Notes under the pieces: generated by a model
Databases searched by the model: none
What the model was told of the DNA's origin: nothing
What the model saw: only the letters and a program-made list of their open reading frames with translations
Assembly: GCA_013115125.1 (NCBI GenBank)
Contig: JABANN010000010.1
Location: 1 to 64,000, forward strand
Origin: Perkinsus olseni
Lineage: Eukaryota
Direction of reading: 5' to 3'
Length of the DNA: 64,000 nucleotides
Program-made: the position numbers and the translations under genes
In this document: piece after piece, positions 3,739 through 22,636 of the stretch
Numbering within the stretch: the first letter of the stretch is position 1
Layout: each line of letters opens with the position of its first letter

Positions 3739-6185
3739 ATGGCGAGTGCATTTCAATCGGCTTTTTCTGGTCTCAAAAAATACACGAAGAAAATGTAATA
3801 ATGGTGATGTTCTAAGAGCAGCTGCTGACCAGCGGTCGATCGGCTCGGTCCTCGTCAAATTTTATGTATCGTCTGTGAAAGTCTAGCCGTGTCGGGTTGT
3901 CTCGACTGGGTAGCTCTGCATGATTTCCCCGGTTGTGTTTCAGTACCCATACGGAGACCCCCTTGGAGAAGAACCTTCGGGAGGCGGCATCGAATGAAAA
4001 CTGGGGAGTGGCCAACTCTGTATTGATTGATATCGCCAGATGCACACATGATTTGTAATATGGTGGAGTGGATATGGTCGCGGTATCACTCTCGGAAGGT
4101 CCGTGGTACGATTCCTGAATCCGGGACCCTGATACTCGTGGTTATCAAAATTGGAGGTCCTGGAAGAACTATTTTGCCACCTAAGTCTCTCGGTGATCTA
4201 GTGTGAATTTCGCAACCGCTAATATCAGCTACTACCACTTGTTTACCGGATGTGGTCTCGAAGGTCACATCAATTGCAGCCTTCAATGGTTTATTCATTC
4301 TTTGAGCTTTATGAATTCTTGCTCAGCAACGACTACTACCTGATCATGTCGACGGTTTGGTCGGCTATTGGGGATAAGAAAGAAAAGTGGCGCAGGATTT
4401 TCAAGGGACTCAATCTGCTCGATTATCTGCTTAAATTTGGATCGGAGCGTGTCGGTAAGGAGGTGGGTTGGCCGACCGTCGTCGCGAGCGAAGTCAGTGC
4501 TGGTTGCTCTGATGAAGTACAAGTCAGTCACTGCGCCGCAGTGAGATGCCCAAATTGGGCGTGTGAGAGCTCCGCTTCTCCGGGCATTTTCTCCGTATCA
4601 TGCAGAGTCCTTCGAATGGCCCCGGGAAAGAAATAGCTCCGAGTCGAGGACGGTGATAGATTAATTGGGGAACTGCGATTTTTTGGCGTGATGCGGGCGG
4701 TTCGATTCCCGATAGAATTGACGGATTTACTCCAAATTTTGGTGGGGAGAAGTACGTAAAAATATCCGGCTGAACTAGCAGAGTGGTCAACTGAGTGCGA
4801 CTCGGTAGAAAGGCCTCTTTGATTGCGACATGGCGATCAGTTGACGAGACGCGCGATGGTATACATCGGATAAGAGCCTTGCAGGACTTCCAGTACATGG
4901 AGGAGGGCCGGGATAAGGGCGCCGGCATCAGGTAGTCCTCCCATAATCAATTTGGGAACCCGAATTCGACCGATCTATTTGGCAGGGAGAAATCTCGGGA
5001 GATCGTGGATCTAGTGAACAACCCTGTCCAGCTGAGGGCTGAGCGCGAGAAGGCTCGTCAAGGCCGTGACAAGTACATTGGTATTGGGAGCTCCGGGCAA
5101 ACCGTGACCACGGCGGTCGGTGCACCTCCGCCGGGGACGGGGTGAGCCATTCTACGGTATAGCGACCGTTGATGGTGTCGTTTCAGGTACGACAATAGTT
5201 TTGGGACTGCACAATATGCGGCACGTGACGGGGGCTCTAACCCGACCGTGCTGACGGCCACGGTTGTTAGCGGGCCGAAACATCTGCCAGAGAAGAGCAA
5301 GTTGGAGGAGCTCAGAAGACAGGTGCCGGGAACGAACTTGGGTCTTTAAATGCGTCGATCGGTCAGCTAGCTTCGAGCTCTCCCTACGAGAGAGGAGTTA
5401 TGATTGCTTTGCACAGGACCGTGAGAGGCAGCGACAGCGAGCCATGGCTGATGATGAGGCTGCACGGAAGCGCCGAGAGGAAGAGCAGCGTATCCGACAG
5501 GAACAACAACAGCAGAGGCAGCGGCAGCAGCAGCGCCAGGTGTGATTTTGTTGCCGATCTTTTAGTAGATGTACGATTATACTGTCAGGTCGCGGAAGAG
5601 TCGGAAGAATCAAGCTCGGAATCATCCACGTCGTCATCGTCATCAGACGAAGAATCGCCCGTGGCGCGCCAGCCAGTTAGACGACCTCCTCCTCCTCCTC
5701 CACAGCAACGGTGGGAATACAATTCTTGAACAGAAGAGTGAACCTTCCGTAACAGGCGTCCAAGGCCTCCACCTCCCCCGCCGCAGCAGTCAGTCGACCT
5801 GCTCAATATGAACGCGTGGCCTCAGCAGCAGCAGCAGCAGCCGCAACCGGTGGCTTACCAAGGAGCACCGCAGGTCCAAACTACAGCCGGTGCTTATCCA
5901 GGTAAAGACGTATGTTTCGGGTACGATCTCGACGCGATGTCTCCAGGCCAACAACAGAGCTATGGTTACGCGGGTTACTACGGCCAGCAGCAGGCAGGGT
6001 ACGCTCAGCCGCCTATGGGAAATATGCCACTACCGCAACAACCGTATCAACCCTATCAACAGCCACAACAACAGCAGCAGCAGCAAGGCGGAGCTAACCC
6101 GTTCGCTGGCTATCCGCAGCAGGCCAGTAATCCCTTCGCGGCGTCCCAGGGCGCCGGAGGATTGCAGCAGTTCCGAGGTCTCTGA
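3739..6185 (+). CDS. Epsin/ENTH-domain clathrin adaptor, spliced
   Basis: ETPLEKNLREAASNENWG, KWRRIFKGLNLLDYLLKFGSERV, LQDFQYMEEGRDKGAGIR, LRAEREKARQGRDKYIGI; Q-rich tail with two NPF motifs. Confidence 0.93.
5820..6086 (+). repeat. CAG/CAA-rich poly-Gln coding tracts in the epsin tail
   Basis: cagcagcagcagcagcag at ~5823 and caacaacagcagcagcagcaa at ~6066. Confidence 0.8.
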
Positions 6186-6862
6186 GTCCTTTAAGTGTCC
6201 GCCATTGAACTCTGTTATTCGTTCTTTATATTGCCCCCTCACGCTGTTCGTTTGCCGCGGTAGGTCCCCGTACAATTGCTGTCGAGGCGCGGCATACTCA
6301 TAATCAGTTTTCTCACAATTACCTTTCCTCCTCGCGTTACAGTTGGCCCCGGTGGTGACAACGCCAGGCCTAGTATTGGAGAGAGGTCGATCTTGTCGGT
6401 TGGGTGCTCCTCGGAGAGACTTGTAGGCATCGACGGTGCCGCACCGTCACGCGCATCGAAACACCGTTGCGCTACTTCTACAACATAACGTCTTGGAGCT
6501 GTCCTCAACTCAAATCAGATTTTTTTGTGTGTGGTAATAGAACTGATGTTAAAGCCCAGTCAATCTTCATGGTAATTGGCGTATCGGTTAGCCACCCCTG
6601 CCGAGGGTGATATTCCCGACGAATGGGGTTCGCCGTTCGGATGTGGGGAAGGAGCTATGGCAAAACCGTCTGCGAGGTCCAACTCTCTCAGTGGCGCACA
6701 GCATACACGCCCGATTTCTGCGGCGTTTTCGTCCCATCTGCATTCGAAGTCTTTTTACGCTACAGTACCGTTTAAATCTTCCGACGTCAGGGCGGCGCGG
6801 GTGTTCCGGTCAAAAGGGGCTAGTTATCCCCGAGACCTCAGTTAGCTTCGCTTCACCGAGGA

Positions 6863-9466
6863 ATGACAGCCGCGACCGCGACATCGGCGATCGCAACGCA
6901 AAGTAGAGCGGACGAAGTTCTTGCAGTGACCACCAAGGATCCACCAGTGCTTGCATGCGCCCTAGTGCGATTAATCGATACTAGCCGTTGCAGATAGAAA
7001 AGCCCAATCCTGAGGAGGTCCGAGATTATGCCCTGTGGCTCGGGCTCACTGACGATGACCGCGATCTGTTTTGGATTGCCGTGCAAGTGATGGTCGCCCG
7101 AACTCCATGGCATATTCTCACCTCTCGCGAGCTAGGCCCTAACAACACCCATTCCGGAGCCGTGGGTACAGTGTCAGACTGCGTCCGGTGATGTATTTTT
7201 TCATAACTCGAAAACCAAAGAGAGCGTCTGGGACCATCCGTAGGGCCGGGGACGCTTGGCTGCCCACCCCGCCTTGGTTTCTTTTGCTGGGCAAAACCTC
7301 GGTGCTAGATTCGACAGCTTCTACCAACAGGCCGTTACCAAATACAAGAAAGGGAAATGCAACCGCAAGGAGCTGGTGAGTCAGTAGACTGCCGGACTGG
7401 CAGTGCCAGTAACCCCACGCCATAGTATTGCTAGTGGCCAGCGGGTCGTTGGCAGCGACCTCATCATCGGCAACTCCACCCCGCTGCTTCTCATGGGGAG
7501 AGTATGAGAATGCTGCGGTTGAGTCGATTGTTCCCATGGACTGAATGGGAGTGCGGGGAATCTGGTGTTCGCGGAATTGCCAGGCTGCAAATTGCCACCG
7601 GGGATGACGTGATCTCACACATTCAGGCTGAGCTCTTATCACAGCCCTGGTTGCTCGAAGGCCTGCACAAGCACCGTGCGTCCAGTGCAAAACCGGCGGC
7701 GGGTGCTCGAGATTATAAGAATGGAAGGAGAGGTACGACGCTAGAAGTTGTGTTGAGTCGTAGGAGTCTTTTTGTTTCTAGACGAGCGCACACCTGCATA
7801 CCCATGCCTAGAAACGACGAATGTTAACGACAACAATAACAGGTAGATTCGGGTGAATCTATGGAATTGATGCTGGCAGCTAAGGGCCGAGAAAGAGGAG
7901 GAAGAAAGGCTGAAGTCAGTCATGGCGTGGGCAGAGCACGCCGTCACCTCCAGCAGCGACAGTGAAACCGAGCAGCGCCGGCAGAAGTGTGTCCCTCACT
8001 ATTCAGAACGGGACTTGCTCATTCAGGCGTAGCAGTGATGGTGAAGAATCACAGCGGCTTTTCACGACGAGGGACACCAAGATGGACGATGGTGGCCAAG
8101 TAAGTTCCCATTCCTTGAAGGCCTTCCTCTGTGCATCTCATCGAAGGTATTCGCCGAGCTTGAGGAAATGAGAGAGGAAGTGCAACGAGTCAAGCAGAAG
8201 TTGGCAGATGTCAGGTCGATGAATGCAGGCACGAGCGCGATTCCTGGACACTGAGTCTAGGACGTCTCTGAATTTCTCGCAGGAGTTAACGAGGAGATCT
8301 CCCAGCTAGCCAATGCCCAAGAGCGCGTGGACCAATCGGTGCACGACTGCAAAGTTGAGCTGGAGAGGACTAAGGAGGACCTCACGCGGACTCGGGAAGT
8401 GATCCGCGCGGCTTCTCAGGTGGTCAACCCAGTGCAGGTCATTCGCTTCCTGTGGTTAGCTCGCGGGCCCGGTTCAATCACAGAGACCGCTTCGTTCGAA
8501 TATCGATTACGCATCAGCCGCGAAAAGGACTAGGGGGCTAGTTGAGATGAGGAAGACGCGAATGGCCCGAGCTCATCAGTTTCATCAGACGCGCGAGAGC
8601 TCGGATGCCGCCATAACTATGCAAGGCACCGAGGAGGAGGCGAGAATTGAGTCGCTGAGGACTGCCCTGCAGCAGACGAACGACGAGGTGGCTTCATCGG
8701 AATCCGTGGTGGAGGCATATGTGAGTAGACCTTCGGATGACGCCTCTTACTTGCTATTGCTCAGAGGACGGAGGCAACGGAGCTCCGGGCGAGGTTGACG
8801 GAAGCTCGTGATTTCGTTGCGGCATTGGCCGAAGAAGAGTCTTCTACCCGAGGCATGATGGCCGAGAAAGAAACTCTGGCTAAAAGCGTGTCCGAAGAGG
8901 TCCACAGGTCAAGCTCCAGAGTGCATTCTACTGTTATCGAACACCCGCTTTGCAGGTTTCGCGGCATGCTGAGAGCCGAGAGGAGTCGACGAGGACTCGG
9001 CAGAGTGTGCAGTGGGAAGGCGCCAGACGCCGCTGCTGATGTCCTTGAGCGTACCGAGCCTGCCTTGCCTGCTGTGAAGAGGCACACGTGAGTCCGAGGA
9101 AATACCAAAGTATTGTCGAGCTCGGGCTGTGGTCTATCAGCTACTGGGACGAGCTACTTGACAAGGATTTGTTGCCACCACCTCCGCCGGAATTCTCTCC
9201 GCCGAAGCCGAGTAAGCCAGGCCAAAATTCTGCCGTAGGGCTCACGTCCGCCCAACCATCGCCAATATCGTTGCACGACGAAGAGCTCCCGGAGCTGGCC
9301 GAGGTAATGGCATTCAGCGAGGAGCCGGTGACGGGATCGGGTGAGGACCCATGGTGAATAAAATGTCGTGACACACTCGGGAGTTGAGTTGGAGTTACTG
9401 TTATTGGCTACCTTCTGGGGTTGACCTAGACCATCGTAGTAGCCGCATATCGACCAACAGAAAGTA
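6863..9466 (+). CDS. CEP164-like WW-domain and coiled-coil protein, spliced
   Basis: PNPEEVRDYALWLGLTDDDRDLFWIA plus next exon GLTTPIPEPWVQCQTASGDVFFHNSKTKESVWDHP resembles the CEP164 N-terminal/WW module; later exons are coiled-coil and Pro-rich. Confidence 0.7.
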
Positions 9467-9603
9467 GCTTGAATCCTGCTATCAGGGCCAGTAGGTTGTC
9501 CTCTTCGTAACGATTTGCTGTACGTACAGGGGTTCGTTCGCCTAGTGAGAGTTTATCCGCGGTCATGTGTTCTCCGGTAAATGCAAATGGCGTTTCTTAT
9601 GGT

Positions 9604-9744
9604 TGGCGGGGAGAAAAGTGGTCGACATAGCACCACTTTTCGCCTGCTACACGGATCTTTGGGGGCGAGGACATAGCGGATCTGAAATCCGCTATGTCCT
9701 CAGAATCCGATACCACAGCTCACTCGCGCAATGAGCTACTTTTC
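9604..9744 (+). other. Cluster of three consecutive stem-loops between two convergent 3' ends
   Basis: GAAAAGTGGT/ACCACTTTTC (9613-9641), perfect 15-bp GAGGACATAGCGGAT/ATCCGCTATGTCCTC (9667-9701), AGCTCA/TGAGCT (9717-9737). Confidence 0.75.
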
Positions 9745-9939
9745 GCGGGGCAGGAGTAATTCTCTGTGCCAAGCGGAAAACGGTTCGGCGATGCAAGCTA
9801 TGGACATATCATGGACACTCGACGGAGTACTTGTCTCCAACCCAAGTACAGCATAACAAGGAATAATAGGAAACTGATTACGTCAAACGAGTACAACCAC
9901 GGCGATGTCTACGATAACTCTTCGGGAAGATGCAGAGAG

Positions 9940-12741
9940 TCAGGCGATGCGGACGATGATATGGATGCCCGAAGGGGAGTAAACCTGACACGTTAAACGG
10001 GACAGCACGTATAGCAGGATAATTACGTGGGTGACAGAACGAAATCGCCCTGCAAAATTCCCAAATGCGCAAGTGCTAGTGTCTTCACGACTTGCTTCGA
10101 CGGATGAACCTACCAGGTCACTCATCTCTCCGACGTCCAACGCAAATGCCGCCTCCTCGAACTCGGGCATCATCTTTCCATGACCGAACCAATCTAGATC
10201 GCCGCACAGATGTCCGGTCTTCCGGCTCGACAAACCTGCCAATGACGCGGTCCTATGCACTGAATAGAGACATCAGAAGCCTCACATTCCGAATGCTTCT
10301 TGCAAAGCTCCGGGAACTTGCTCGAGTCCTTCCGGAGGTCAGCTAGGATTGACATCATGGTGTTCTCGGCCTCTGTTTTCGCTGAGAACAAGCAGGAAAA
10401 TGAACCTCCGGGGAATTATGAATCACTGACTCACGAATCCAACGATGCCGTGCAAGCACAGAGATTCCGTGTCGCACTGCGATGACTTCGGGCAGTCAAA
10501 TGTAAAAACGAAAGCCCCGTGAAGCTTACTTCTGGTAACCTGCTTGTTACGGACACGATCCCGTGGGTTCCGAACGTCCTTGTGCTTCATCAGGATGTGC
10601 TTACATCGGATCTTCTTCACTTCCCTCGCCGGGCCTGTCCCTGAGAATACGCGGAAGTCCTCGACCATCAATTCGCACGACAGGGAATAATCACGCTGTC
10701 GTTTCGCTGCTTTAGGAGAGCTAGGGTCCTCCAAGGCCTTCGCTTGTTGCTCAGCAAGGAGATCCAAATCACCGAAGGTTGGTGGCCGAGGCCAATTCAG
10801 AAAAACGGTGATGGCGGTCAGGTTATCTTGAGAACCCCTCTGATACCTGTTCACGGTAATCGAGATCATAAGCATATTCTTCTCTTGGAGTGTTATAAAT
10901 ATCACGATAGATTGATATGAAGTAGACATCGTCATTTACATCGTAGTATGAAGGGGACTGTTATGGACTACTCCGATTCTCGTTCGAACTACAAGTTTAT
11001 TCAAATTACGAAGGAGCTTCAATGGCCCACTAGGTGGCCTATGGCCAACAGAATTCTTCAAGAAGGCCCGGAAAGATGATCTCGACGAGTCCGTACGCTT
11101 CCTGAATTAGTCCTCCAGATGCCGCTTTGGGTTTCCGATTATACTGTAGTATCTTCGCGCCAATCATCGCCGGAGTCATCACATCTGTCACGCCGTCGCA
11201 AACGAGAACCTGGAAGAAAAAAACGAGCGCTAAGCACAACACCACTCGATTCGGCACGTACCAGCGCGATATCAGTCTCCGGGCTCAATGTGTGATGGTT
11301 GACGCTCGGAACTGATATAATAAGCTTATTGGGCGTCTTGAACTCCCGGTCGCCAAATGCACGGGAAACCGCCAGAGCAATCTAAGGGGAGTGTCCTGTA
11401 CAACAAGTAGCGGAGGCGGCTGTGGTTCTACCGGTGGCTTCTCCATTGCTCCCAGACCGGCATTGGTAGCCTTCTTGTAGGCCTTCATCTTCTCTTCGTA
11501 GTCTGCCGCGGCGACCCGCGCCTACCAAAGCTATATACAAATTGGAGAGGGACTCTACGCAGTAATGTCAGCGAGGCCCTCGTCAATCACATGCCGAGAT
11601 TCCCCCGTACTTACCACGCCACCAGCCGGAGTCACCATCGCTCCGCCGTTTTTGACGATGCGGTCCTTCTCTAAGCGCAAGAGGGAACATGGTGTGTCAC
11701 CTCCGATGGCTCACTGATCCAAAATCGGCCTACCTGTCGCATCTTCTGGCTTGTGATTTGTATGGCACAACTTGACCTCCAGTGAGTAATTGGGATGTTG
11801 ACGTTGCTGCTGATGGTGCTCATCTGCTGCCGAGGCTGAAGAGATCGGGCGATGAAGTCCAGCACACATCTTCACAATGATATCGAGTCCATCAGAGTGT
11901 TATAACAATTCATTCTGAATAGGACACCGACTGAAAGCCATCATTCGCAGGGACACCCTTTCAGAACTCGCACGTTCAGGTTTTCTCCCCTCCACAGGAC
12001 CTCTCAAGTCCCCCTGCGCTGCCACCTACTTTGAGCTGGAACACGCTGCACCAGCAAACATGCTGAGTCGCCGATATTAGCGACATACAAATCGATACCG
12101 ATCACCAAGGCGATTACTGAAAAAAGAACATTTCAAGCAATGTGTGATTCTGGACTGGCTAAGGGCGCTGCTATACTATACAAAATTGATTCATTATCGA
12201 AGAGTTCATCATTATCCGTCGAGAGGTCCTTTCTGCCGCAGCCCTCACCTGCGGTGCTTCCATCTGGTATCGTCCTGTATTTCGCAAGAAACTCCTCGTC
12301 CAGTTCTCTGAAAGAGTCCTCGAAAACCTTCCGCATGAACTGATTCAAAAATCGTATTCTCGCATCATCTCCTTAGCGGAGAGAGTCTCGCTAACCTCTT
12401 CGGTTATAGGCTCCTTATGATTGGCCAGTCGCGGTAAAATCTGAAACGGTCAGATCTCTGCCAAGCCCTCCAACGACAGACTTGGGTCCGAAGACCTCAC
12501 GTTGATTTTGATTTTCCCCCACCTACCTTGTTATGTGTCTGCTTTATACAATATTCCGCACAAGTGACGCCCTGGTGCCCATCGTACACCATATACCTGG
12601 CAGCTGAAGAATCGATTTCGGCAGGAGCCAGATACACAATTTAACGCACCAAATCAGGGACTTAAAGCGGTGGAAGACTCCTTTGTGAGGAATCACAATA
12701 TCAGACTCACAAGGAATCCGAACGAACACTGAGTTGAGCAC
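9940..12741 (-). CDS. PP2C (PPM) Ser/Thr phosphatase fused to a C-terminal Pin1-type parvulin PPIase; 5' end uncertain
   Basis: PP2C motifs VYDGHQG, DGSTA, LYVANIGDS, EKDRIVKNGG, LAVSRAFGD, VCDGVTDV, RGSQDNLTAI; parvulin motifs IRCKHILMKH...RNP...VTR, KHSEC, GDLDWFGHGKMMPEFEEAAFALDVGEMSDLV, SPSGIHIIVR. Confidence 0.9.
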
Positions 12742-12779
12742 ACAAACACTGCCGGAAATCTGGGTGTGAGAAATCTATG

Positions 12780-13290
12780 GCTGACCATCACCCCAGGTGA
12801 TTCACCCGGTAACAGAGTTGTTGTTTTCAGGACAGTACAACTCCTCTTGCTAGTGAGCTGGGGCCCGCAGAGCACCCCAACGGAACGCCCTAATCCCCTA
12901 ACGGATTCCAAGCGTGGCGAGGGGTAGTGCTAATAATTGATGACTCATCAAACATCTGAGATCTTGCAAGTCCCAGATCTCAGCTACTGACCGCTCTATC
13001 TCTACTAGGACTTGTCTAGGTGAGGAAGTTTCCGCAGTCGAGAGCGAATGAACCGGCGGCAGATACGACCTTGTTTCAGCCTATGAAATCATCGAAGTAC
13101 GATATTCTCGCCATTGCAAGCGAGATGGCCCACGAGTCTGCAAACTCACATTTTGCGAGTCGCAAGTACCCTGAGACCGACGTGACAGCGCCAAAAGGGC
13201 AGATTCTGTCACAGAACACGGCCGACAATGTCGCTTCCGAGCTCGCTGCAAGCTCAGCGAGATTCGGGTGATGGCGCCCATCATCGCTCG
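12780..13290 (-). mobile_element. Degenerate reverse-transcriptase fragment (DIRS/Ngaro-like)
   Basis: A minus frame not in the ORF track reads FCDRICPFGAVTSVSGYLRLAK...ISYFDDFIG*, with PFG at 13190-13198 and YFDD at 13088-13099, then stops. Confidence 0.65.
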
Positions 13291-13423
13291 AGAGCGAGAA
13301 TATGCGGGAATCATGGGAGCTGCACCCCGATTAGTGCCGATCAAACACATCCTATGGTAACAGCTGACAGCCGACCAATGCTATGATACCATCATCACCG
13401 CTCTTACACACGATCTCGAAACG

Positions 13424-15000
13424 TTAGTGAGCCTCCCCGCCCCGAGATCGCAGGAGAGAACCATCTACGCGATGATGAATATCCACAGCGAGCCATGCCA
13501 TGGCTGCCAGCTTCATCGAGCCCTTGGCGTTGGGCCTTCGGTTGAGCGATGCCGCTCTCACGCGGAGGCCACGAAGTTTTACGTGATATAACGAGATTTT
13601 ACTAGGGTGATGCCTCAGAGAGAACAAATCATCTATCGCTGCGCGCATACTTTACTCATAGGCGAGCCTCAAAGGCTCAGCCTCCAACGGATAGAACAGT
13701 AAATCCGGTGCTGTACTCGCCCTAATTATAACCGCAGGAGAATTCACCAGGTGGGCTAGAAACTATTTTCTGCGACGATTATCGGAGAAGACGCGAACGG
13801 ATTTGACTCACATTCCCGTTGGGCTGGGCAAATGATCTAGGTTGTATCCGAGCCTCCGCCCTATATCCTTCAAATCCTTCAATAGTGCATGCTTATCCTC
13901 CATTTTCGCCCGTCCTGAAACGATTCAATACCAGTTCGATCACCTTCCTCGCCTGAATTACTCCCCTGCATCATAGTGGCGTCAGCAGCCAACCTCAGCT
14001 CTTGGGAGGGATCGTGTTTAGCCATCGCCATTGACAGCCACTCCTCACGTGAGAGTTCTCGGAAGGTCCCATCACTTCGCGGCCTGATGGCAAATACCTC
14101 ACGCTTGACCTATGCCCACATTCCCCCACTCCCACCCAAGGAGAGCTCATCAAGGACCACATCGCTCATGGATGAATGCCCTACGTTTCCCTATTCCTAT
14201 TGCTCAATCTCTTGCTCAACGAAATCCGCAAGAGAGAAATACAGAGAAATCCTCTATGATTCAATCATGGGAAGCGTGACGAGGAACCCACTGCGCTCAC
14301 CGCCGGAGCGTGAAAGTACAATACGCAGAACGAGGGATTCACCGATGATAATTTCTATTTACTTACATGACATATAACCACGAGTTTGAATAATGAGTTA
14401 GTTCTTGTACAGAATTTCAGCCGACCATCCCCTATCATTACAAATATAGCTTTTGAGTAGCTCGTTGAAGCATCGTTCCCGTGACTCCATGATAATACCA
14501 GTTACCCGAGGGATCCGATTCGTGCGGTACCCAACTAAAAAAGCCACCTTAAGCGACCCAGAGCTAACTCATTATTCCCCTCCAGGAACGCACAAGGCTC
14601 TCCGTAGCCTAACGGGCGAAACTCCGCACCTTCATTAGAGTCCCAGTTACAGACTTGCGCGAGACGAAGTTTCACAAAAGGTTATTCCTGTTTGAAACTG
14701 AAATTCGACGACTTCGCGAAGTACCCTTCCTGATCCAGCAGCCACCGGCTCTGTTGGTCACGGTGAGCCTCGGCATTCCCTTCGACAGTGTCAACGGCCG
14801 TTACGCCTTCCTTATGACGGGCCGACTTGTCGTCACTAGAAGAGCCCGCCTGAGAGAATATTACCCATATCAAAGCTTATGTCTCTGGATTCAACAACAA
14901 GATGGCCGGAAGATGGCTTGTGAGGCCAGTGCAAGGTCAGGCGGCGTTATAGCGCAAGTAACGATATGATCCCCGAAATCGAGCCGTCAACGCAGTCGGC
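13424..15000 (-). CDS. Hypothetical spliced protein
   Basis: GT-AG-bounded open exons (RAKMEDKHALLKDLKDIGRRLGY; ASTAPDLLFYPLEAEPLRLAY; VKREVFAIRPRSDGTFRELSREEW); no family recognised. Confidence 0.4.
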
Positions 15001-15147
15001 GTCTCATAAAATTGAAGGCCGAGGCATCCAGAGCATGGATCAAAATAAAGTTATTGCGAAAGTGATTGCGAAAACCGCAGGTAGAACCTTCCAAGGCCTC
15101 ATAAAAATCTCTACTCATGAACTCACACCTCATGAAAGATGACCCTT

Positions 15148-16156
15148 TCAGTCGTGTTTATCTACCGTGGTACTCATGGAGTCCGCCGCGCAATCAAATC
15201 CGTTCATTGCGCCATCACCGATCCAAGACTTTCGTTCGAGAGCCCCCGCTGTTATGACCATAAGCTTCTGTTCCAACTCCTTCATCTGCCGGCTGGCCTC
15301 TTGAGCTTCTCTTCGATGTTTCTCTTCCTCTTGCTTTTGCTTGATCATCCAGAGCGGTGTCCCTCGACCACGGCCTGAGAAGACGTGGACTACGACAACT
15401 TTTTCACGCTGATATACAGGGTTCGAATAGGCGTGAAGGAGACACAACGCGAAACTCATCACTGGTAGCCTCAATTACGAGAAGGAATCATGATAGAGAG
15501 CCACTCCGTCCATCACTGGCTGGTAACGTGAGCAACGGTCGAAAGTGGAATCACGAGTACGATTGTACGACAATATTGCAAGAAGTGTGGCCATAGAGCA
15601 AGCCCAAAAATCTATCCTATCCTTCCTGGCTACCCGGCACACTGCACTGCATCTTCCGTTCTGCTTGCCGTTGGGCATGAGCGTCCTCAAAGAATACACT
15701 CACTGGCTGAAATAAGAAGAATTACTCGACGCCCACCCAGGATGCGTAACCCAGCGGCGACCCAGCGAAATTGCCGCCGCAATAGAATCTTCCGCGACGT
15801 TCCGAAAAGCTCTCGCAGGGTTTCGAAATTCCTGGACCCAAGAACAGCCCTATGGCATACGTACCCGCACCTCGGATAGGGAGGTCTCTACAACGAATCG
15901 AGACACAGAAAATCGCCGAGACCGAACCATGCCAAGGCAGCAAGCACCGAAGGGATACTCCCCCATGATAGCGAAGAAGTACTACATTCGGGGCAGGTCC
16001 ATATCGCTGAGCGTACTGATGATCGATGCAGTCGGCGAACTCATCATCATCTTGCGTGGTTGGAGGAGGGGCCGGGCCGACGTTCCCAGCGGCTCCCGTG
16101 CTACCACTGCTAGCATTGAAGTCATAGTACTGCGGCCCTCCTTGTTGGCCCTCCAT
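15148..16156 (-). CDS. Hypothetical spliced protein
   Basis: Plausible start MEGQQGGPQYYDF and charged coiled-coil last exon (KQKQEEEKHRREAQEASRQMKELEQKL); no family recognised. Confidence 0.4.
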
Positions 16157-17825
16157 TGAAGCCTCCGACGGGGAGTAGAGGGATGCGAGATGGAACGCAA
16201 GGAAAAGGCTGCGATGACACAAAGAGAGCGGTTACTTGGACCTTTTCCATTCCATCGACGTCGGTGTATTAATTACTTCCAACGCGAGCCTACATCGCCT
16301 CAATACGTGACATAACGAAAATGATGGCGACGATGCTGACGGGCGGCGGGAGGTGATAACCTCAACAGCTTCAAGTCAGAGTTATAATACTACCTCTTGC
16401 TGCTGATACTATGAGCCACCGGTCATCCCGATGTAATGAACGGTAACAGTATACAGAAGATTCATCCACGAAGATAACGACAGACTACTATACCATTCCT
16501 TCCACAGATCAGCTCAGGAGGTAGGTTACACTGGTCGACCCACGATAGAGTTCGGCACTGATAATACTACTAACATGTCAAACAATCTCGGGAAAAACAA
16601 TCTTAGTCTCGGCGAAAATGACAATACCTTTGCGAAAGTCAAGCTACGAGAGATACGATCGACAGTTGAGTAATCCAACCTACTGAACAAGCTGGTCGTC
16701 GTCACTCTCCCTGACGGGCACGATCCCAGCCGACGATATCAAAGATCGACAACGCTGACTAGTACTACGATAAAGACAGAAAGCCCGATTGGTGCGGGAA
16801 TACTACAATGGTCTTCTTATAGTTGAATATAGACAGACGTCAAGCTTACGTACGGAACGGCCAAGCTGGATTGATTCCACTATACTGGCATCAGCTGGCA
16901 GAAAGAGCCGTTTACGTGACCGTTATTCTATGCCGTTTGGTCGGAGACGTCGATGCGCTGGACCGACCGCAGCCAGAGTCTCCTGCTCCTAGAACCTTCA
17001 CCGTTTTAGACGATTTGGATCTCCTCTTGCGGGGCGCTGCTGGAGCTGTTAAAGGGATATCTGAAGTGCTAGTGAACTCCAGCAGCGAAGACACCTCAAT
17101 CCGCTAGCGACCGTTTACTACGATTTTCAGCTTCATCGAGCAAAATACGGTATGCTAACCCGCGCGAATTTCCTCATTGAAAATAGAAATGATATAGACG
17201 CGTTACAGAAAAGCCACGGTCGGGCCAAATGACAGAAGTATTACCTTTGAGGACAATGCCGCTATCCCTGACATTCCCGGGATGCCCCCAGGGATCGCCA
17301 GGGAGAACGCCACCCGTTAACAATGCTCGTCGTCGGGCCATAGCAGCTCTGGTACCTAGGAGTAGCCACCATAAGCCATAAGGAAAAACCGAGAGAATCC
17401 AAGATGGCAAGATTACACTGTGCTGGTGGCATCTCCCTTGCCAGAGCCAAGTCTAACGCAGTGAGAGTTGATGGTTCTGATGACGGTTCTCGATCGTTGC
17501 GTTTCCGCTTGGACTTCAATGGTGTGAAAATAGCCGCATTTGGCGGCTGCAGAGCGCTGAGGAGAATGGGAGAAATGCCCACGGAACGGCGGAGCGATGC
17601 ATAACCCAGCAAGAACCTCTCCAGTTCTTGGGAGTATTCTCGTACGCATTCCCTCATACCACAACTTCCACAATTGAGTCCGTGATTATGATAATTCGAT
17701 GAATATTGATAATAACCTAGTCCTCGGTTAATGTTATTGTAGCTATTCACTGTAGTGATATTAATACAAAGAACTAGATTCGCCGCACGCATGAGGAATC
17801 ATGCGTCATACCGACTCTCCCTTAA

Positions 17826-19568
17826 CTACCATCTTGAAGAATCCCCTCCGCCCACTGTAGACGGGCTGGACGCAGCTGCGCTCGATCCGCTTCGGCTATC
17901 GCCAACCGAGCTAGCACTAGCGGCCCTCCTTCTGCGCTGGATGGGTTGCTCGTGTGAGTGCATCGCCGAGACCACCGTAGTGACACTGAGAAGATGTGAC
18001 TTCTCCGGGATAGTCCACACGATAATTCCTACTCGAATCCTGGTCGCATTTCCACTCGAAGAAGTTGCAACTTTCTTCTAACATTGGCGTAGCTGGCTGT
18101 ATCTCTTTCTAATATAGCCGCGGCCGCTTCGCTCACCGCTGCGAATGCTAGCACGTCACCAGGGTAGAATAGAACCGACCTGAAGGCAATTGGAACCGTG
18201 TGATATGTTCGGGTGGAGCAAATTCGTTCAGGAGGAGACAGACCGAGAAATAAAGTTGACATTAGGAATAGCCTATCTATGGTCTCACCTCCCTCTGAAA
18301 GCTTCGTTAAGGAACGCTATAGCCTTCTGCTGTAATCTCTTCCTCAGCTCGCCATCGCTGGTGATGCTCTTCACTATCTGTGCAACAACACGCCTGCGCT
18401 CGAACTGCCGAAGAGCAAGGATGCGCTCTCGAGGGCACCGACGTATCGTTCGGATGGAACAGAGTCCGGCACTAGAAAAACCTCCTGGCGCAAAATTTCA
18501 AGGCGCGTGACGCCAGAGGACCCACTAGGCGCAACAATCCCTCATATTACTGAGCTCACGTGCTTGTGCGGGAGATTGAGATCAAATTCAAACCCCGTCA
18601 AACACATGATGGCCTCCTCGGTCTCGCATACATCTTGGGCCATCTTCTGCAGTGCCTGCAAATCGATTGTGCGATCGATTAGGACACACCCGTACAGGAT
18701 ACCTTCTGGCTGGTGTACCGAGACTGCCTCTCGAGCTTCTCATAACAATCGAGTAGCTGATTCATCCGAAGGCGTATCTAGTGCACGAGAGAAAGGTATC
18801 TTCCCAACCCCGAAGATTCCACTCGCCTCACCGGGGATCTTTCGCATGACTTAAATGCCAGGAATGTCGCTGCTAGGACCACCGGTCGCCACCCATATCG
18901 CTGAAAAAAACCCGCTCCCAATTCCCGCAGCTTCGCAACTCACCACCAACCTTTAAACTGTGCACTGCGTAGAACAGATGACAGTACCACATAGCAGTGG
19001 CCCTAACTTCCGCGAAATCCTCAGGACCGATGCCGTTACGGTTCGCCGGTATGCAGTAGTCGCTCCAAACCCTTTGGCACATCTGAAAGGCTCTGATGCT
19101 CCGAGGGTTAATAGAGAGAGATTATCGCTACTTTGTCCACGTAGTCTGCGTGACGGACTACTGCGCTGTCTTCTGTCACATCCGTCACCCTGAAAGGAAA
19201 CACGTCAAGTCAGAAGAGCGGATTCGCTCGATCATCAAAGGCATCGCATGACTATTATGGAAGAAACGTTAAGCACACGAGCTTGAATGGCGGGAAGACA
19301 AAATCCGAAACAACCGAGCTGCGGGAATTCACAGCAACAGCGGATCTGACTACGCATCTAGCCACCGCCAATACCCAGCAAAACGGGGTGTCCGGATTCG
19401 AAATCAGTGATGGCTCATTCCAGCTGTTTCCCCACGACCGGTAGTAAATTCTCGTTGGTTTTTTACCTCATCAGCCGATCAGCAGGGAAATGACCCGTCC
19501 GGAACCACAATTCTGTTTCATCACCATGACGAGCGGAAGTTCCGCTGCGGAACCCTCTCCCTCCCATG
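17826..19568 (-). CDS. Transcriptional cyclin (T/K/L/H-like), spliced; start approximate
   Basis: Exons read ATAMWYCHLFYAVHSL, AATFLAFKSCE, ETEEAIMCLTGFEFDLNLPHKH, KAIAFLNEAF, VLFYPGDVLAFAAV, i.e. the two cyclin-box folds. Confidence 0.8.
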
Positions 19569-19609
19569 GACGTATTACTTATCCTTCCTACTGGGGCTAG
19601 CGATCCTCA

Positions 19610-19780
19610 GCGCATCCGGCGAGAAGAGTAGCAAGCCCTTGTAAGCTTCCGAACTACTGCATGTAGAAGGCTGTGAGGAGGAGAACCCATGTGGCCCGTG
19701 CGGCGATACCTTTCACGCATCCATGAACGATAGAATATGGCCTGATGCCTATTCTCACCACTGCTGGCGATAAGTAGTCC
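19610..19780 (+). mobile_element. Possible decayed Mutator-like transposase fragment
   Basis: GDTFHASMNDRIWPDAYSHHCWR* (19702-19773) resembles the MULE D...VFPxA.H..C..H segment; surrounded by stops. Confidence 0.25.
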
Positions 19781-22636
19781 CCACACGCTGTAATGGGACT
19801 GTGACTTCCGCAAGATCCTCCACTGAGTGGTACTAGACCGCCGAGATCGTTGAGACCCCCGCCGCACATTACGATGGGAGCTCGGGATAGAAGAGACGTA
19901 TCTGCAACCGTAAGGGTGTAAGGAAGAGTCGTAGCATGCATTCTGGGTTTTCACGGGACTTCTGGGCGTCAAGTCGGATGAATTCTGCTAGTTTGCAGCG
20001 GTATCATGAATTCAACGCGGGAAGCTATGCCCCTGCTAACGGTCACGGATACTCGGGTACTGTACTCATCCCATGAGCCCCATACAGAGCGGATGTTTTA
20101 CACCCATCTATTTTCAGACAAAATCGACCTGTGCTGCAGAGCCGAAGAGAGCCAGACACGGCACGGGTCGTCCTCGATGGGCCCGGTAGGGCCGAAATTA
20201 ATCATTGGACGAATCTTAGCAGCGTAACGACACTCTCGCCTCTCAGCCCAGTTTGCGTGGAAAATTCAGGAGAGCTCACAGGAGGGTTCTGATCAACTAG
20301 AGATGCTCATACAGCGGTTAAGGCGTGCCACACCAACTCGCCTACGAAGAGACGCTCCCCATTGGTACTACCCGGGGACTCCTGCCTCTGTTGAAAGTAC
20401 TGAGACCGCCGAGCAGAAGGGATGGTGTCGTAGTCCTCACTAGGAGCACCAGGGGGTCGCTTCGGCGGACTCTCGACGTTGACGATCATGAAAGATATTT
20501 TTTGAGTTTTAGAAAAGTTGGTATCAAAAACTGATTGAGTGGAAATCTCATACAATCATACGCCAAATAACATCTTATTCACCATCTGGCTCTGTCGTAT
20601 CATGCTACACAGCATAAGCTGCAGTAGGCGTGCTAATGGTAGACCGATGATTTTTTCTACAACGAAGACAGCACGTGGGACAGAAAATTCCCGCGCGCCC
20701 AGAAATTGATCCGATATTTATGGCCGTTTGCCTTTTCTCCCGCTTTTGTTGCGCAGTGAATGCTTTTCAAGCTCGCGTCTGATGATCCCCTGAAAGCGAT
20801 ATATGTTAATCCTGGATGTCGTCCCATACGTCGCGTTCGTCGTTTGGTATGGCTGCACCGCTTTGGCATCTTGGTAGGCCCGTCCACTTCTATTGGGCGT
20901 TCGGTTGAGCGATGCACTCGAACTGTTGAACAACCATGTGGCTCCTAATCAGAATCTTGTCGCCTGGCCTCCCGTATTTTCTACGAATCCTGAGGGATCT
21001 AAGATAGTGTCTTGAAGGGACTTGTCGCGAGTTACCGCTCTCAGCGAAAGTCGGCGGCCTGGAGCGTCAGTTCGACGACGGGACTCATCACTACAGTGCT
21101 CGTCCTCTTCTTTTTTCAGGCTTGGGTCTGTTAAGAGTAATTTATTGCTGCATTCTTGAATTGCTATCCAAAACTGTCTAATTAACTGCGACTCCTTCAC
21201 TCAGTTGTTTTTGATATTCCCCATCCCGGTATGCTCAACTTCATTCCCAAGACATGCCAATCGGTATCTTTCCTGTGAGTCATGCTAACTCAACCTCGCC
21301 AAAGATACTTCTGTACCAGGTACGGGAAGCGTGCGGTTCAAAGGATTGCTGTGGGAGCAGCTGGAAGGGAGGTTGAGGTAGTATATCGCGGGATCGAAGA
21401 TCTCCCGCGCTTCCACGTATCGAATTTAGGTACCTCTCGATGTGGTAAGGGATATCCCTGAGATGTGCGACACGTCAGCTTCTTATATCGGGAACAAGTA
21501 TCAAGCATTGCCTTGGTAGGATCTTGAGGCTGGACCTGTACTTTCTCGGATCATAAGATTCCTTCGCAGGAACGAATTCATCCGTATCAAGCTCGATGCA
21601 CGGAATCTGATGGATGCAAACGTCAAAACTGCTCTCACGGATTTGGACTGGTATGAGAAGATCAGGTGGGAAACTGCTACGGTTGACGATTCATGTCACT
21701 CGCCACGATATTAGAGCCGTCTATGCCACCTCCCAAACGGCAACGGAAATGGATGTCGTGTCGAAAATGACGGAGCAAATGGCAGGAAAGGGCGTGAAGT
21801 AATAGGGTCCGACAGTCTGTTGGTCCTGATGGATTCCTCCAGAGCAGAGGAGGCTCTCAATGCGGATCCAGCTTCCTCGATTTTTTCGGCTGCGTGAGTC
21901 CTATGCTGTTAATTGTGGGCTTGCTCTGCCGGCTCGTTGTCGTGGCTGAACTTCTCTCATTTTGGAATCGCCGCTCTCATCCAGACTGAGTGACGTTGCT
22001 CCCTTCGAGTTGCCTCCCGTGCTCTTCACGGTGATGTTCCTTTTCACGTTAGTGGTATTTGTTCCTATCGGTATCTTCGCGTCGTTGACTGGACAGAGTA
22101 AATGAGTCGCGGACTGTGAATGAATTCCTAGTATCGTGATTGTTCCACTTGCTCCAGGTACCCGGTTGCGAAGCAGTAGAGTGGTGGCATTATTGACCTT
22201 TTTAGGAGTATAATCTTCGTGATGGTGCTGAGGTTTCGAGTAGAGTTTCATGTTGAGTTGCTCTATCTCGGTGTGAATTTGAACTAGTGTGCCTTGCCGG
22301 TGTATGCGATTTCTCCTGGCCTACTGGGAGTAGCGCTCAATAGGGATCACTATCTGCGTAGCTGTAATCCCGAGAAGCGACATGGACGAACTTTCTTTTC
22401 TCCGTTAGAGTAGGCGAATACAGTGCTGGAAAGCACGTGTTGGTACTACCAACATGGTAGAGTACAGAAGCGCTGCCAGAGAAATTTCCTCACTCACATT
22501 TTTTCCGGACTTGCGTTCAACATGGCGGTTTCAGATATCTATTTCAGCTTTACGGCCCGTCTGCCGCGCGCGCTGGTTGGCCCCTTGGAGGGATTTTTCA
22601 GTAATGGAGTTGTATCGTTGTGGTAGTTCTTTTGGA

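Follow-up and report, generated by a model that had tools for sequence, protein, structure and literature searches.

A Perkinsus olseni gene joining a PP2C phosphatase to a Pin1-type parvulin, and its relatives across Dinozoa

The window analysed here comprises the first 64,000 nucleotides of Perkinsus olseni contig JABANN010000010.1 (assembly GCA_013115125.1), and all positions refer to it. On its reverse strand one gene, trans-spliced to a spliced leader (SL), makes a single 700-residue two-enzyme protein in which a PP2C-type (PPM) phosphatase is followed by a Pin1/Ess1-type parvulin, that is, a peptidyl-prolyl isomerase (PPIase). We regard it as practically certain that this fusion is real; it is expressed, it is old within Dinozoa, and it unites two enzyme types that are each known; the pairing itself is apparently unstudied. 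Cooperation between prolyl isomerases and phosphatases is known for separate proteins, and a natural fusion puts the coupling within one chain; it also bears on whether PP2C-type enzymes distinguish the cis and trans forms of phosphorylated Ser/Thr-Pro (pS/T-P) sites, a preference that to our knowledge has not been settled. Our literature search, whose cover stopped short of subscription papers and supplements, found no description of a PP2C-parvulin fusion, and genome or phosphatome tables could list it. The interest has its limits: both domains are textbook ones, models of the fusion are already present in GenBank and UniRef, where they carry generic names, and the function is read from sequence.

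Expression of the gene was followed in four sequencing runs (of 24 available; four studies), two of which (X2 and X7) are RNA on record, while X4 is guessed to be RNA and X19 is unlabelled; their Logan contigs, which are assembled paths and not single molecules, were aligned over positions 9500-17600. In each of the four runs the whole gene lies on one spliced contig of 2225-2247 nt, extending from ~9860-9881 to 16207-16210, and 15 GT-AG joints are identical throughout, including the one at 10847-11096 ahead of the DN motif, that of a 54-nt intron and those of three parvulin introns. A loose contig end was found at 16210 in three of the four runs, and its reverse complement matches the 3' part of Perkinsus SL1, a leader of 22 nt whose sequence is given in PMC3101222 (papers are cited here by such numbers, for the passages available). 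Inside the gene the contig alignments of the four runs contain no loose end, the leader being present at the 5' end only. While 15 introns come directly from the joints, five upstream ones were inferred from their GT-AG borders together with the lengths of the contig pieces and the depth per bin; the length of the resulting model agrees exactly with the X2 contig (2237 letters including the shared AG), and the modelled protein is identical at 700/700 residues to public P. olseni KAF4667648.1. Concerning a second copy, searches of the organism's own genome returned only the locus described here.

A preliminary description of positions 9940-12741, made from the letters alone, had proposed the fusion because the last PP2C motif, RGSQDNLTAITVFL, and the first parvulin motif, IRCKHILMKHKDVRNP, share one open reading frame (ORF) at 10423-10935 on the reverse strand. 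This frame is indeed stop-free over 170 codons and carries both motifs, and the fusion stands apart from it as well, as the contigs join the PP2C exons to the last parvulin exon in all four runs. The check on RNA that had been suggested for the PP2C/parvulin junction thus gave a joined product, via 10847/11096, 10641/10694 and 10382/10529, in 4/4 runs. As messenger RNA, however, the stop-free frame does not exist: the intron at 10641-10694 is spliced out, and 10847-10935 and 10423-10529 are intronic too. The frame is open partly by luck, since the length of that intron is divisible by three and it holds no stop. The active-site Cys of HSEC is present as described, but it lies outside the ORF and its codon is split by the intron 10236-10285. 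The 5' limit at 12741 proved to be inside a 1215-nt intron, the gene beginning 3.4 kb further upstream; seven exons had been missed, up to the ATG at 16156. They encode 267 N-terminal residues and hold the conserved motif GTPLW, an OCRE-like module and, as the first motif of PP2C, RRAKMED. It may be added that two introns, 9985-10113 and 10641-10694, are stop-free multiples of three, so that a transcript retaining either would stay in frame, with 43 or 18 additional residues in the parvulin or the linker; the contigs of the four runs hold spliced forms only.

That one polypeptide contains a PP2C and a Pin1/Ess1-type parvulin was borne out, the best PDB sequence match being yeast Ess1 (E 2e-24), and the Pfam scores on the identical public protein (Table 1) exclude chance. 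As had been proposed, the protein is WW-less (no WW among six Pfam matches at E<=1); the Pfam scan of the fusion protein gave no FHA domain either. All PP2C ligands are present (R235, E239, D240, D273, D353, D493 and D533, which we take to correspond to R33/E37/D38/D60/D146/D239/D282 of PPM1A), within the motifs GRRAKMEDK, YDGHQG, GDSAC, VCDGVTD and SQDNLTA, and when Foldseek was run with the PP2C domain the rows shown were all PP2C structures or complexes (best E 5e-21). The key residues of the parvulin are H591, K595, R600, N601, C646, S648, L659, M667, F671, S691 and H694. It keeps the equivalents of Lys63, Arg68, Cys113, His59 and His157, with Asn for Arg69 and Met for Gln131; the extended basic loop is thus there, with K595 and R600, and N601 in the place of R69. 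Both active sites therefore look intact in P. olseni, and both are probably active in Perkinsus. TbPin1 has the same two replacements and yet is a phospho-dependent PPIase, one Arg being said to suffice (PMC3416822), while TbPar42 has the basic triad and is catalytically inactive, without rescue by single reversions (PMC6468809). Because of this second case, motifs alone are no proof of parvulin activity.

With yeast Ess1 and human Pin1 (7kkf, 1pin and others), its best PDB sequence matches, the parvulin shares the fold, the long basic loop with the K63 and R68 equivalents, and the equivalents of Cys113, His59, His157, Leu122, Met130 and Phe134; it differs from them in belonging to a WW-less fusion, in the R69 to N and Q131 to M changes, and in its position behind a 320-residue PP2C domain. 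Like TbPin1 (2lj4), Pin1At (1j6y) and Tetrahymena EAS06520.1 it has no WW, and it has the R-N of the loop and the Met at Q131 in common with TbPin1 and the loop RNPxDRVRNxQVTRT in common with the Tetrahymena protein; unlike the fusion, these three are stand-alone proteins of ~115-140 aa. TbPar42 and TcPar45 are also two-domain protist parvulins with a non-WW partner, but there the partner is FHA, TbPar42 is inactive, and the PDB match is weaker (E 1.5e-10). Elsewhere in the P. olseni genome there are a stand-alone WW-less Pin1-type parvulin (L002, G000:C2744:22876-26133) and a Pin1-like gene with a WW domain, read by eye from the translation (L003, G000:C2947:9418-12558). The idea that the fusion is the organism's only Pin1 was consequently rejected, and since the genome also encodes these two, the fused parvulin represents a dedicated extra copy.

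An AlphaFold2 model from a 145-row alignment (mean pLDDT 81.8, pTM 0.71) predicts, in order, a disordered N-terminus, a helix (residues 89-121), a five-strand module (~163-203), the PP2C domain (221-543), a partly disordered linker and the parvulin (585-700). The module is suggested to be OCRE-like at family level. Pfam OCRE (PF17780) matches 11/62 family members at E<=1 (best 1.7e-5), the Pfam scan finding no such match in the P. olseni fusion itself, and a profile of 15 alveolate segments places the RBM5 and RBM10 OCRE domains on top of 11 PDB matches at E<=10, with E 0.048 and 0.23. A fold search of the isolated module with VIA placed OCRE structures amid folds unrelated to them, with Z 3.5 (47 aligned at rmsd 3.1, rank 16) and Z 3.2, the best match being an unrelated spliceosome chain (Z 4.9); Foldseek gave nothing at E<=0.001 for the isolated N-terminal module, and the ESM Atlas no usable match for residues 150-225 or for the relative P0005. 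The likeness to the RBM5/RBM10 OCRE domains (5mf9, 5mfy, 2mxw), the two best PDB matches of the family profile, consists in an aromatic-repeat beta meander; unlike them, the P. olseni protein matches below significance and has fewer tyrosines, and ligand binding is known from RBM5 only, whose OCRE is reported to bind poly-proline (PMC5127646). It had been supposed that PP2C occupies the place which WW has in Pin1: the absence of WW stands, but the OCRE-like aromatic module, and not PP2C alone, may do the job of WW. As for the linker, a K[KR]x[KR] motif directly precedes the parvulin in 143/148 fusions, against 9.5% of random windows, and linkers are short throughout the family, with a median of 18 aa by HMM bounds. 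This motif resembles a nuclear localisation signal (NLS) and suggests nuclear import, which would match the nuclear Toxoplasma PPM9 (PMC8785970), an orthologue by name only. The prediction of a three-chain complex (helix 80-122, PP2C 218-546, parvulin 582-700), in two runs without alignments, scored 0.00 and is informative neither way.

To follow the family, 357 proteins were gathered by sequence searches and cluster look-ups and scanned with local hidden Markov models (HMMs); the set contains redundant entries, its search seeds lean towards one subfamily, its counts describe the sample and not nature, and those of pseudophosphatase copies are inflated by relatedness and search seeds. Both domains, PP2C-like and parvulin, are present in 148 of these proteins. 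Among named sources the fusion occurs in P. olseni, P. marinus, P. chesapeaki, a GEMP01 transcript (PMC6642578 cites that prefix for Hematodinium), Amoebophrya A25, Noctiluca, Karlodinium, Alexandrium, Prorocentrum, Polarella, Symbiodinium, Cladocopium and Effrenium; among the 357 proteins, most of whose rows have no species name, every named carrier is a dinozoan. The preliminary description knew of no characterised protein of this architecture, and we also found none, but the architecture itself occurs widely in Dinozoa, and public databases annotate it. In an alignment of 147 fusions (P0200, longer than 1000 aa, was left out) E239, D240, D273, D493 and D533 are all kept in 13, every one of them from Perkinsus or the Hematodinium-like group, where both sites are kept together (three Perkinsus species) at only ~43% identity. 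An unnamed fragment, P0128, keeps the PP2C motifs within its span. Across the family the parvulin residues are near-constant: the Cys113 equivalent in 143/146, the His157 equivalent in 140/143, and K or R at the Lys63 equivalent in 147/147; position 601, equivalent to R69, is S in 69/147 and N in 24/147.

Two variants of the architecture were also seen. In 11 of the 148 fusions, dinoflagellate paralogues that include Symbiodinium natans CAE7570454.1 (P0155), P0156, P0171, P0200 and P0213, a J-domain with the HPDK motif lies inside the dead PP2C fold and is followed by the parvulin, and 4 of 5 tested have a Pfam DnaJ match near or above the cut-off; it is possible that these paralogues are Hsp70-recruiting isomerases. 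P0354 has KH domains ahead of a pseudo-PP2C/parvulin-like region, which suggests an RNA-linked variant.

Concerning the origin of the fusion, a PP2C tree of 41 rows (mixture model; P. falciparum PPM9 is a long branch) places all 12 fusions and eight PP2C-only rows in one clade (100/97), sister to an apicomplexan clade containing PPM9 (95/89; joint support 96/96). The quick 80-row PP2C tree agrees with it, and in both the pseudo-fusions form one group (98 in the 80-row and 92/93 in the 41-row tree) reaching from Amoebophrya to Symbiodiniaceae; since group labels of unnamed rows were assigned after the quick tree, only named anchors and branch supports were used. In a parvulin tree of 51 rows, whose bootstrap is not fully settled and from which the WW-parvulin of L003 is absent, all 29 fused parvulins and two unnamed probable fragments form one clade (97/95); the closest row to it is the stand-alone parvulin of Tetrahymena (83/91), and the solo parvulin of P. 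olseni lies elsewhere. The simplest reading of these trees is that a WW-less alveolate Pin1 was fused once to a PPM9-type phosphatase, in the dinozoan ancestor of Perkinsus and dinoflagellates, and that duplication and complementary loss came afterwards; a more ancient fusion that apicomplexans later lost is possible. The apicomplexan PPM9 proteins (P. falciparum PPM9 and relatives in Selenidium, Cardiosporidium and Eimeria) share with the fusion, besides the sister position, an aromatic N-terminal segment visible in Selenidium, Cardiosporidium and Plasmodium, but they have neither the parvulin nor the GTP(L/M)W motif. Reported data on PPM9 include the resistance of PbPPM9 to tagging in 18 attempts (PMC4094981) and the dispensability of TgPPM9 for virulence in mice (PMC8785970); in the available text of these two papers and of PMC8949495, all on apicomplexan phosphatases, the words isomerase and OCRE do not occur. 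Next outside is a choanoflagellate OCRE-PP2C group with intact PP2C (P0164, from Salpingoeca urceolata, and P0173), weakly joined (86/61). A Salpingoeca protein passes the Pfam OCRE cut-off, and OCRE-PP2C may be an old eukaryotic architecture.

For the function of the P. olseni protein we tentatively favour, as a possibility somewhat short of probable, that the tethered parvulin and PP2C act on a shared substrate with kinetic coupling, isomerising first and then dephosphorylating. The protein would be nuclear, and the OCRE-like module and the PP2C surface would dock it on proline-rich phosphoproteins, replacing the WW domain. The parvulin would equilibrate pS/T-P bonds and the PP2C would dephosphorylate the isomer it accepts, as Ess1 does for Ssu72 in trans; candidate substrates would be nuclear pS/T-P proteins such as the C-terminal domain (CTD) of RNA polymerase II (Pol II) or splicing factors. 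In core dinoflagellates the gene would have been duplicated, some copies being a phosphatase without parvulin and others a parvulin on a dead PP2C fold. The analogy is with Ess1 and Ssu72, whose dephosphorylation of the CTD is reported to require the isomerase activity of Ess1 (PMC4496705); here too an isomerase would feed a phosphatase on pS-P sites. Unlike the fusion, however, these are two separate proteins, Ssu72 has another fold and is cis-specific, and an isomer selectivity of PP2C is only hypothetical. One candidate substrate is encoded in the genome, as the RPB1 C-terminus has 25 YSPTSP[AS] heptads, 22 of them ending in Ala, and several introns (L008, G000:C2824:91500-95598). For Ssu72 (PF04722) the best match in the organism's own genome, searched exon by exon, is below cut-off (E 0.57), a weak negative as there was no eukaryotic positive control; Plasmodium is reported to be without Ssu72 (PMC4094981).

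Several observations weigh against the coupling of the two enzymes. PPM enzymes are not known to select between prolyl isomers, and the two other Pin1-like genes of the genome would be able to act in trans. Pin1 is also reported to affect the trans-specific phosphatase Scp1 barely (PMC4496705). The strongest counter-evidence is evolutionary: most fused relatives have lost PP2C catalysis and many others the parvulin. When 16 rows were set aside (the 13 intact fusions, P0128, one partial and one mis-spliced model), D273 and D493 are both kept in only 4 of the other 131 fusions, fragments included, and not in 127, while the parvulin core is kept in 118 of the 128 that cover its sites. Since the PP2C ligands are mostly lost and the parvulin is kept, the fusion has been preserved across the family without phosphatase activity, and coupling to dephosphorylation cannot be what preserved it there. 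Conversely, 58/101 PP2C-only relatives have all four motifs, including all named apicomplexan orthologues (intact examples are found in Effrenium, Selenidium, Cardiosporidium, Eimeria and P. falciparum PPM9); with so many active-looking relatives lacking a parvulin, the phosphatase needs no fused isomerase.

For the family, therefore, a scaffolded isomerase is favoured, in which the OCRE-like module and the PP2C fold dock a Pin1-type isomerase in the stead of WW, and the phosphatase, where kept, is uncoupled and acts on other sites or partners. In the relatives without both aligned catalytic Asp the PP2C core and surface are still conserved: in 102 pseudo-fusions 70 positions reach a conservation of 85% or more, H289/K291/L293, R455-G458-D459 and P515-K/R516 among them; the pseudo-fusions form the single group described above, and the J-domain inserted in some fusions fits the role of a platform. 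It should be noted, however, that no PP2C ligand has been lost in Perkinsus or the Hematodinium-like group over ~57% divergence, and that the inflation of the pseudo-copy counts affects this argument. As an account of the P. olseni gene, we consider such a scaffold, with which the coupled reading chiefly competes, possible and rather unlikely. Because these two groups retain both sites, coupling stays open for this gene.

The parvulin could also have its main ligand in its own chain, namely the N-terminal Thr-Pro of GTPLW, whose phosphorylation and isomerisation would open or close the enzyme. The motif (xxP[LMYF]W[KRM], mostly GTP(L/M)WK) travels with the parvulin, as it is present in 93/111 fusions with an N-terminus versus 2/60 PP2C-only proteins, both of the latter looking like truncated fusions, probably, and it is common to Perkinsus, the Hematodinium-like group and core dinoflagellates. 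A Thr precedes the Pro in 81 of these 93 fusions, but in the other 12 the residue is A, K or I. Copies with a dead phosphatase still have the motif, and T87-P88 stands at the start of a predicted helix, T-P being a common helix cap. The motif may be an intramolecular ligand or a mere cap, and the switch appears improbable. More improbable still is that the parvulin is a non-catalytic binding module, holding pS/T-P substrates for the phosphatase or recruiting partners. TbPar42 provides the precedent, an Asn replaces R69 here, and relatives show still more drift in the loop; but the catalytic Cys, His and Lys equivalents are near-universal in the fusions, at the counts given above, and Met and Ser are found where TbPar42 has Tyr350 and Leu374, although single reversions did not rescue that protein. 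Finally, an artefact, whether a chimera of the assembly or two neighbouring genes that share a polycistronic precursor, could draw on the assembled nature of the contigs and on a mis-joined public model of this gene (P0004), by which automatic models here can err, but it is contradicted by the one stop-free frame, by canonical GT-AG joints in 4/4 runs with SL only at 16210, and by the recurrence of the fusion in 148 proteins, mostly from transcript-sized contigs of other organisms, so that its probability is negligible.

The fullest form of the coupled reading would be a one-chain enzyme that isomerises and erases phosphate at nuclear pS/T-P sites, whether of the Pol II CTD or elsewhere, doing with a PP2C fold the work of the separate Ess1 and Ssu72 in a lineage whose genome search gave no Ssu72 match above cut-off, and which core dinoflagellates would have turned into Pin1 isomerases aimed by a pseudophosphatase, some with an inserted J-domain. 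Taken as a whole this is unlikely; if true, it would add a new mode of Pin1-type enzyme targeting and would be evidence for a prolyl-isomer-selective PPM phosphatase. The family has its own controls, namely the intact fusion (Perkinsus, Hematodinium-like), the active-looking PP2C alone (apicomplexan PPM9, dinoflagellate paralogues) and the dead PP2C with parvulin (core dinoflagellates, Amoebophrya), and it offers a way into PPM9, an apicomplexan phosphatase that is still poorly understood.

Table 1. Coordinates of the fusion gene and its parts in the window (aa, residues of the encoded protein)
Feature	Position	Strand	Basis
Whole transcript	9860..16208	-	21 exons, 2235 nt after the spliced leader; one contig per run, 4/4 runs
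Coding sequence, 700 aa	16156 to 9940	-	ATG at 16156; gene model from contig joints
Trans-splice acceptor AG	16209..16210	-	loose end at 16210, 3/4 runs; SL1 match
GTPLWM motif (aa 86-91), contains Thr-Pro	15346..15363	-	start of predicted helix aa 89-121
OCRE-like aromatic five-strand beta module (aa ~162-204; end of exon 4, exons 5 and 6)	14050..14726	-	predicted meander; family-level profile
PP2C/PPM catalytic domain (aa 221-543)	10795..14001	-	Pfam PF00481, 143 bits (cut-off 20.3); motifs; Foldseek
1215-nt intron	12597..13811	-	joint in 4/4 runs; holds 12741
Linker (aa 544-584), basic KRQR, NLS-like	10618..10794	-	parts with pLDDT <50
54-nt intron, in-frame, stop-free	10641..10694	-	spliced in 4/4 runs; multiple of 3
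Pin1/Ess1-type parvulin (aa 585-700)	9943..10617	-	Pfam Rotamase, 74 bits; best PDB match yeast Ess1, then human Pin1

With regard to the neighbourhood of the gene, the public model P0004 (P. olseni FOZ60_013332) joins the upstream neighbour (16318-19950) to the fusion gene and loses the DN motif. This model is probably wrong, because the RNA contigs show two separate transcripts, the upstream one from 16318. The neighbouring genes suggest no functional link to the fusion: a coiled-coil gene lies near 8000-9400, and exons at ~4200-6200 on the forward strand presumably belong to an ENTH/epsin-type gene, which they resemble, with a proline- and glutamine-rich tail.

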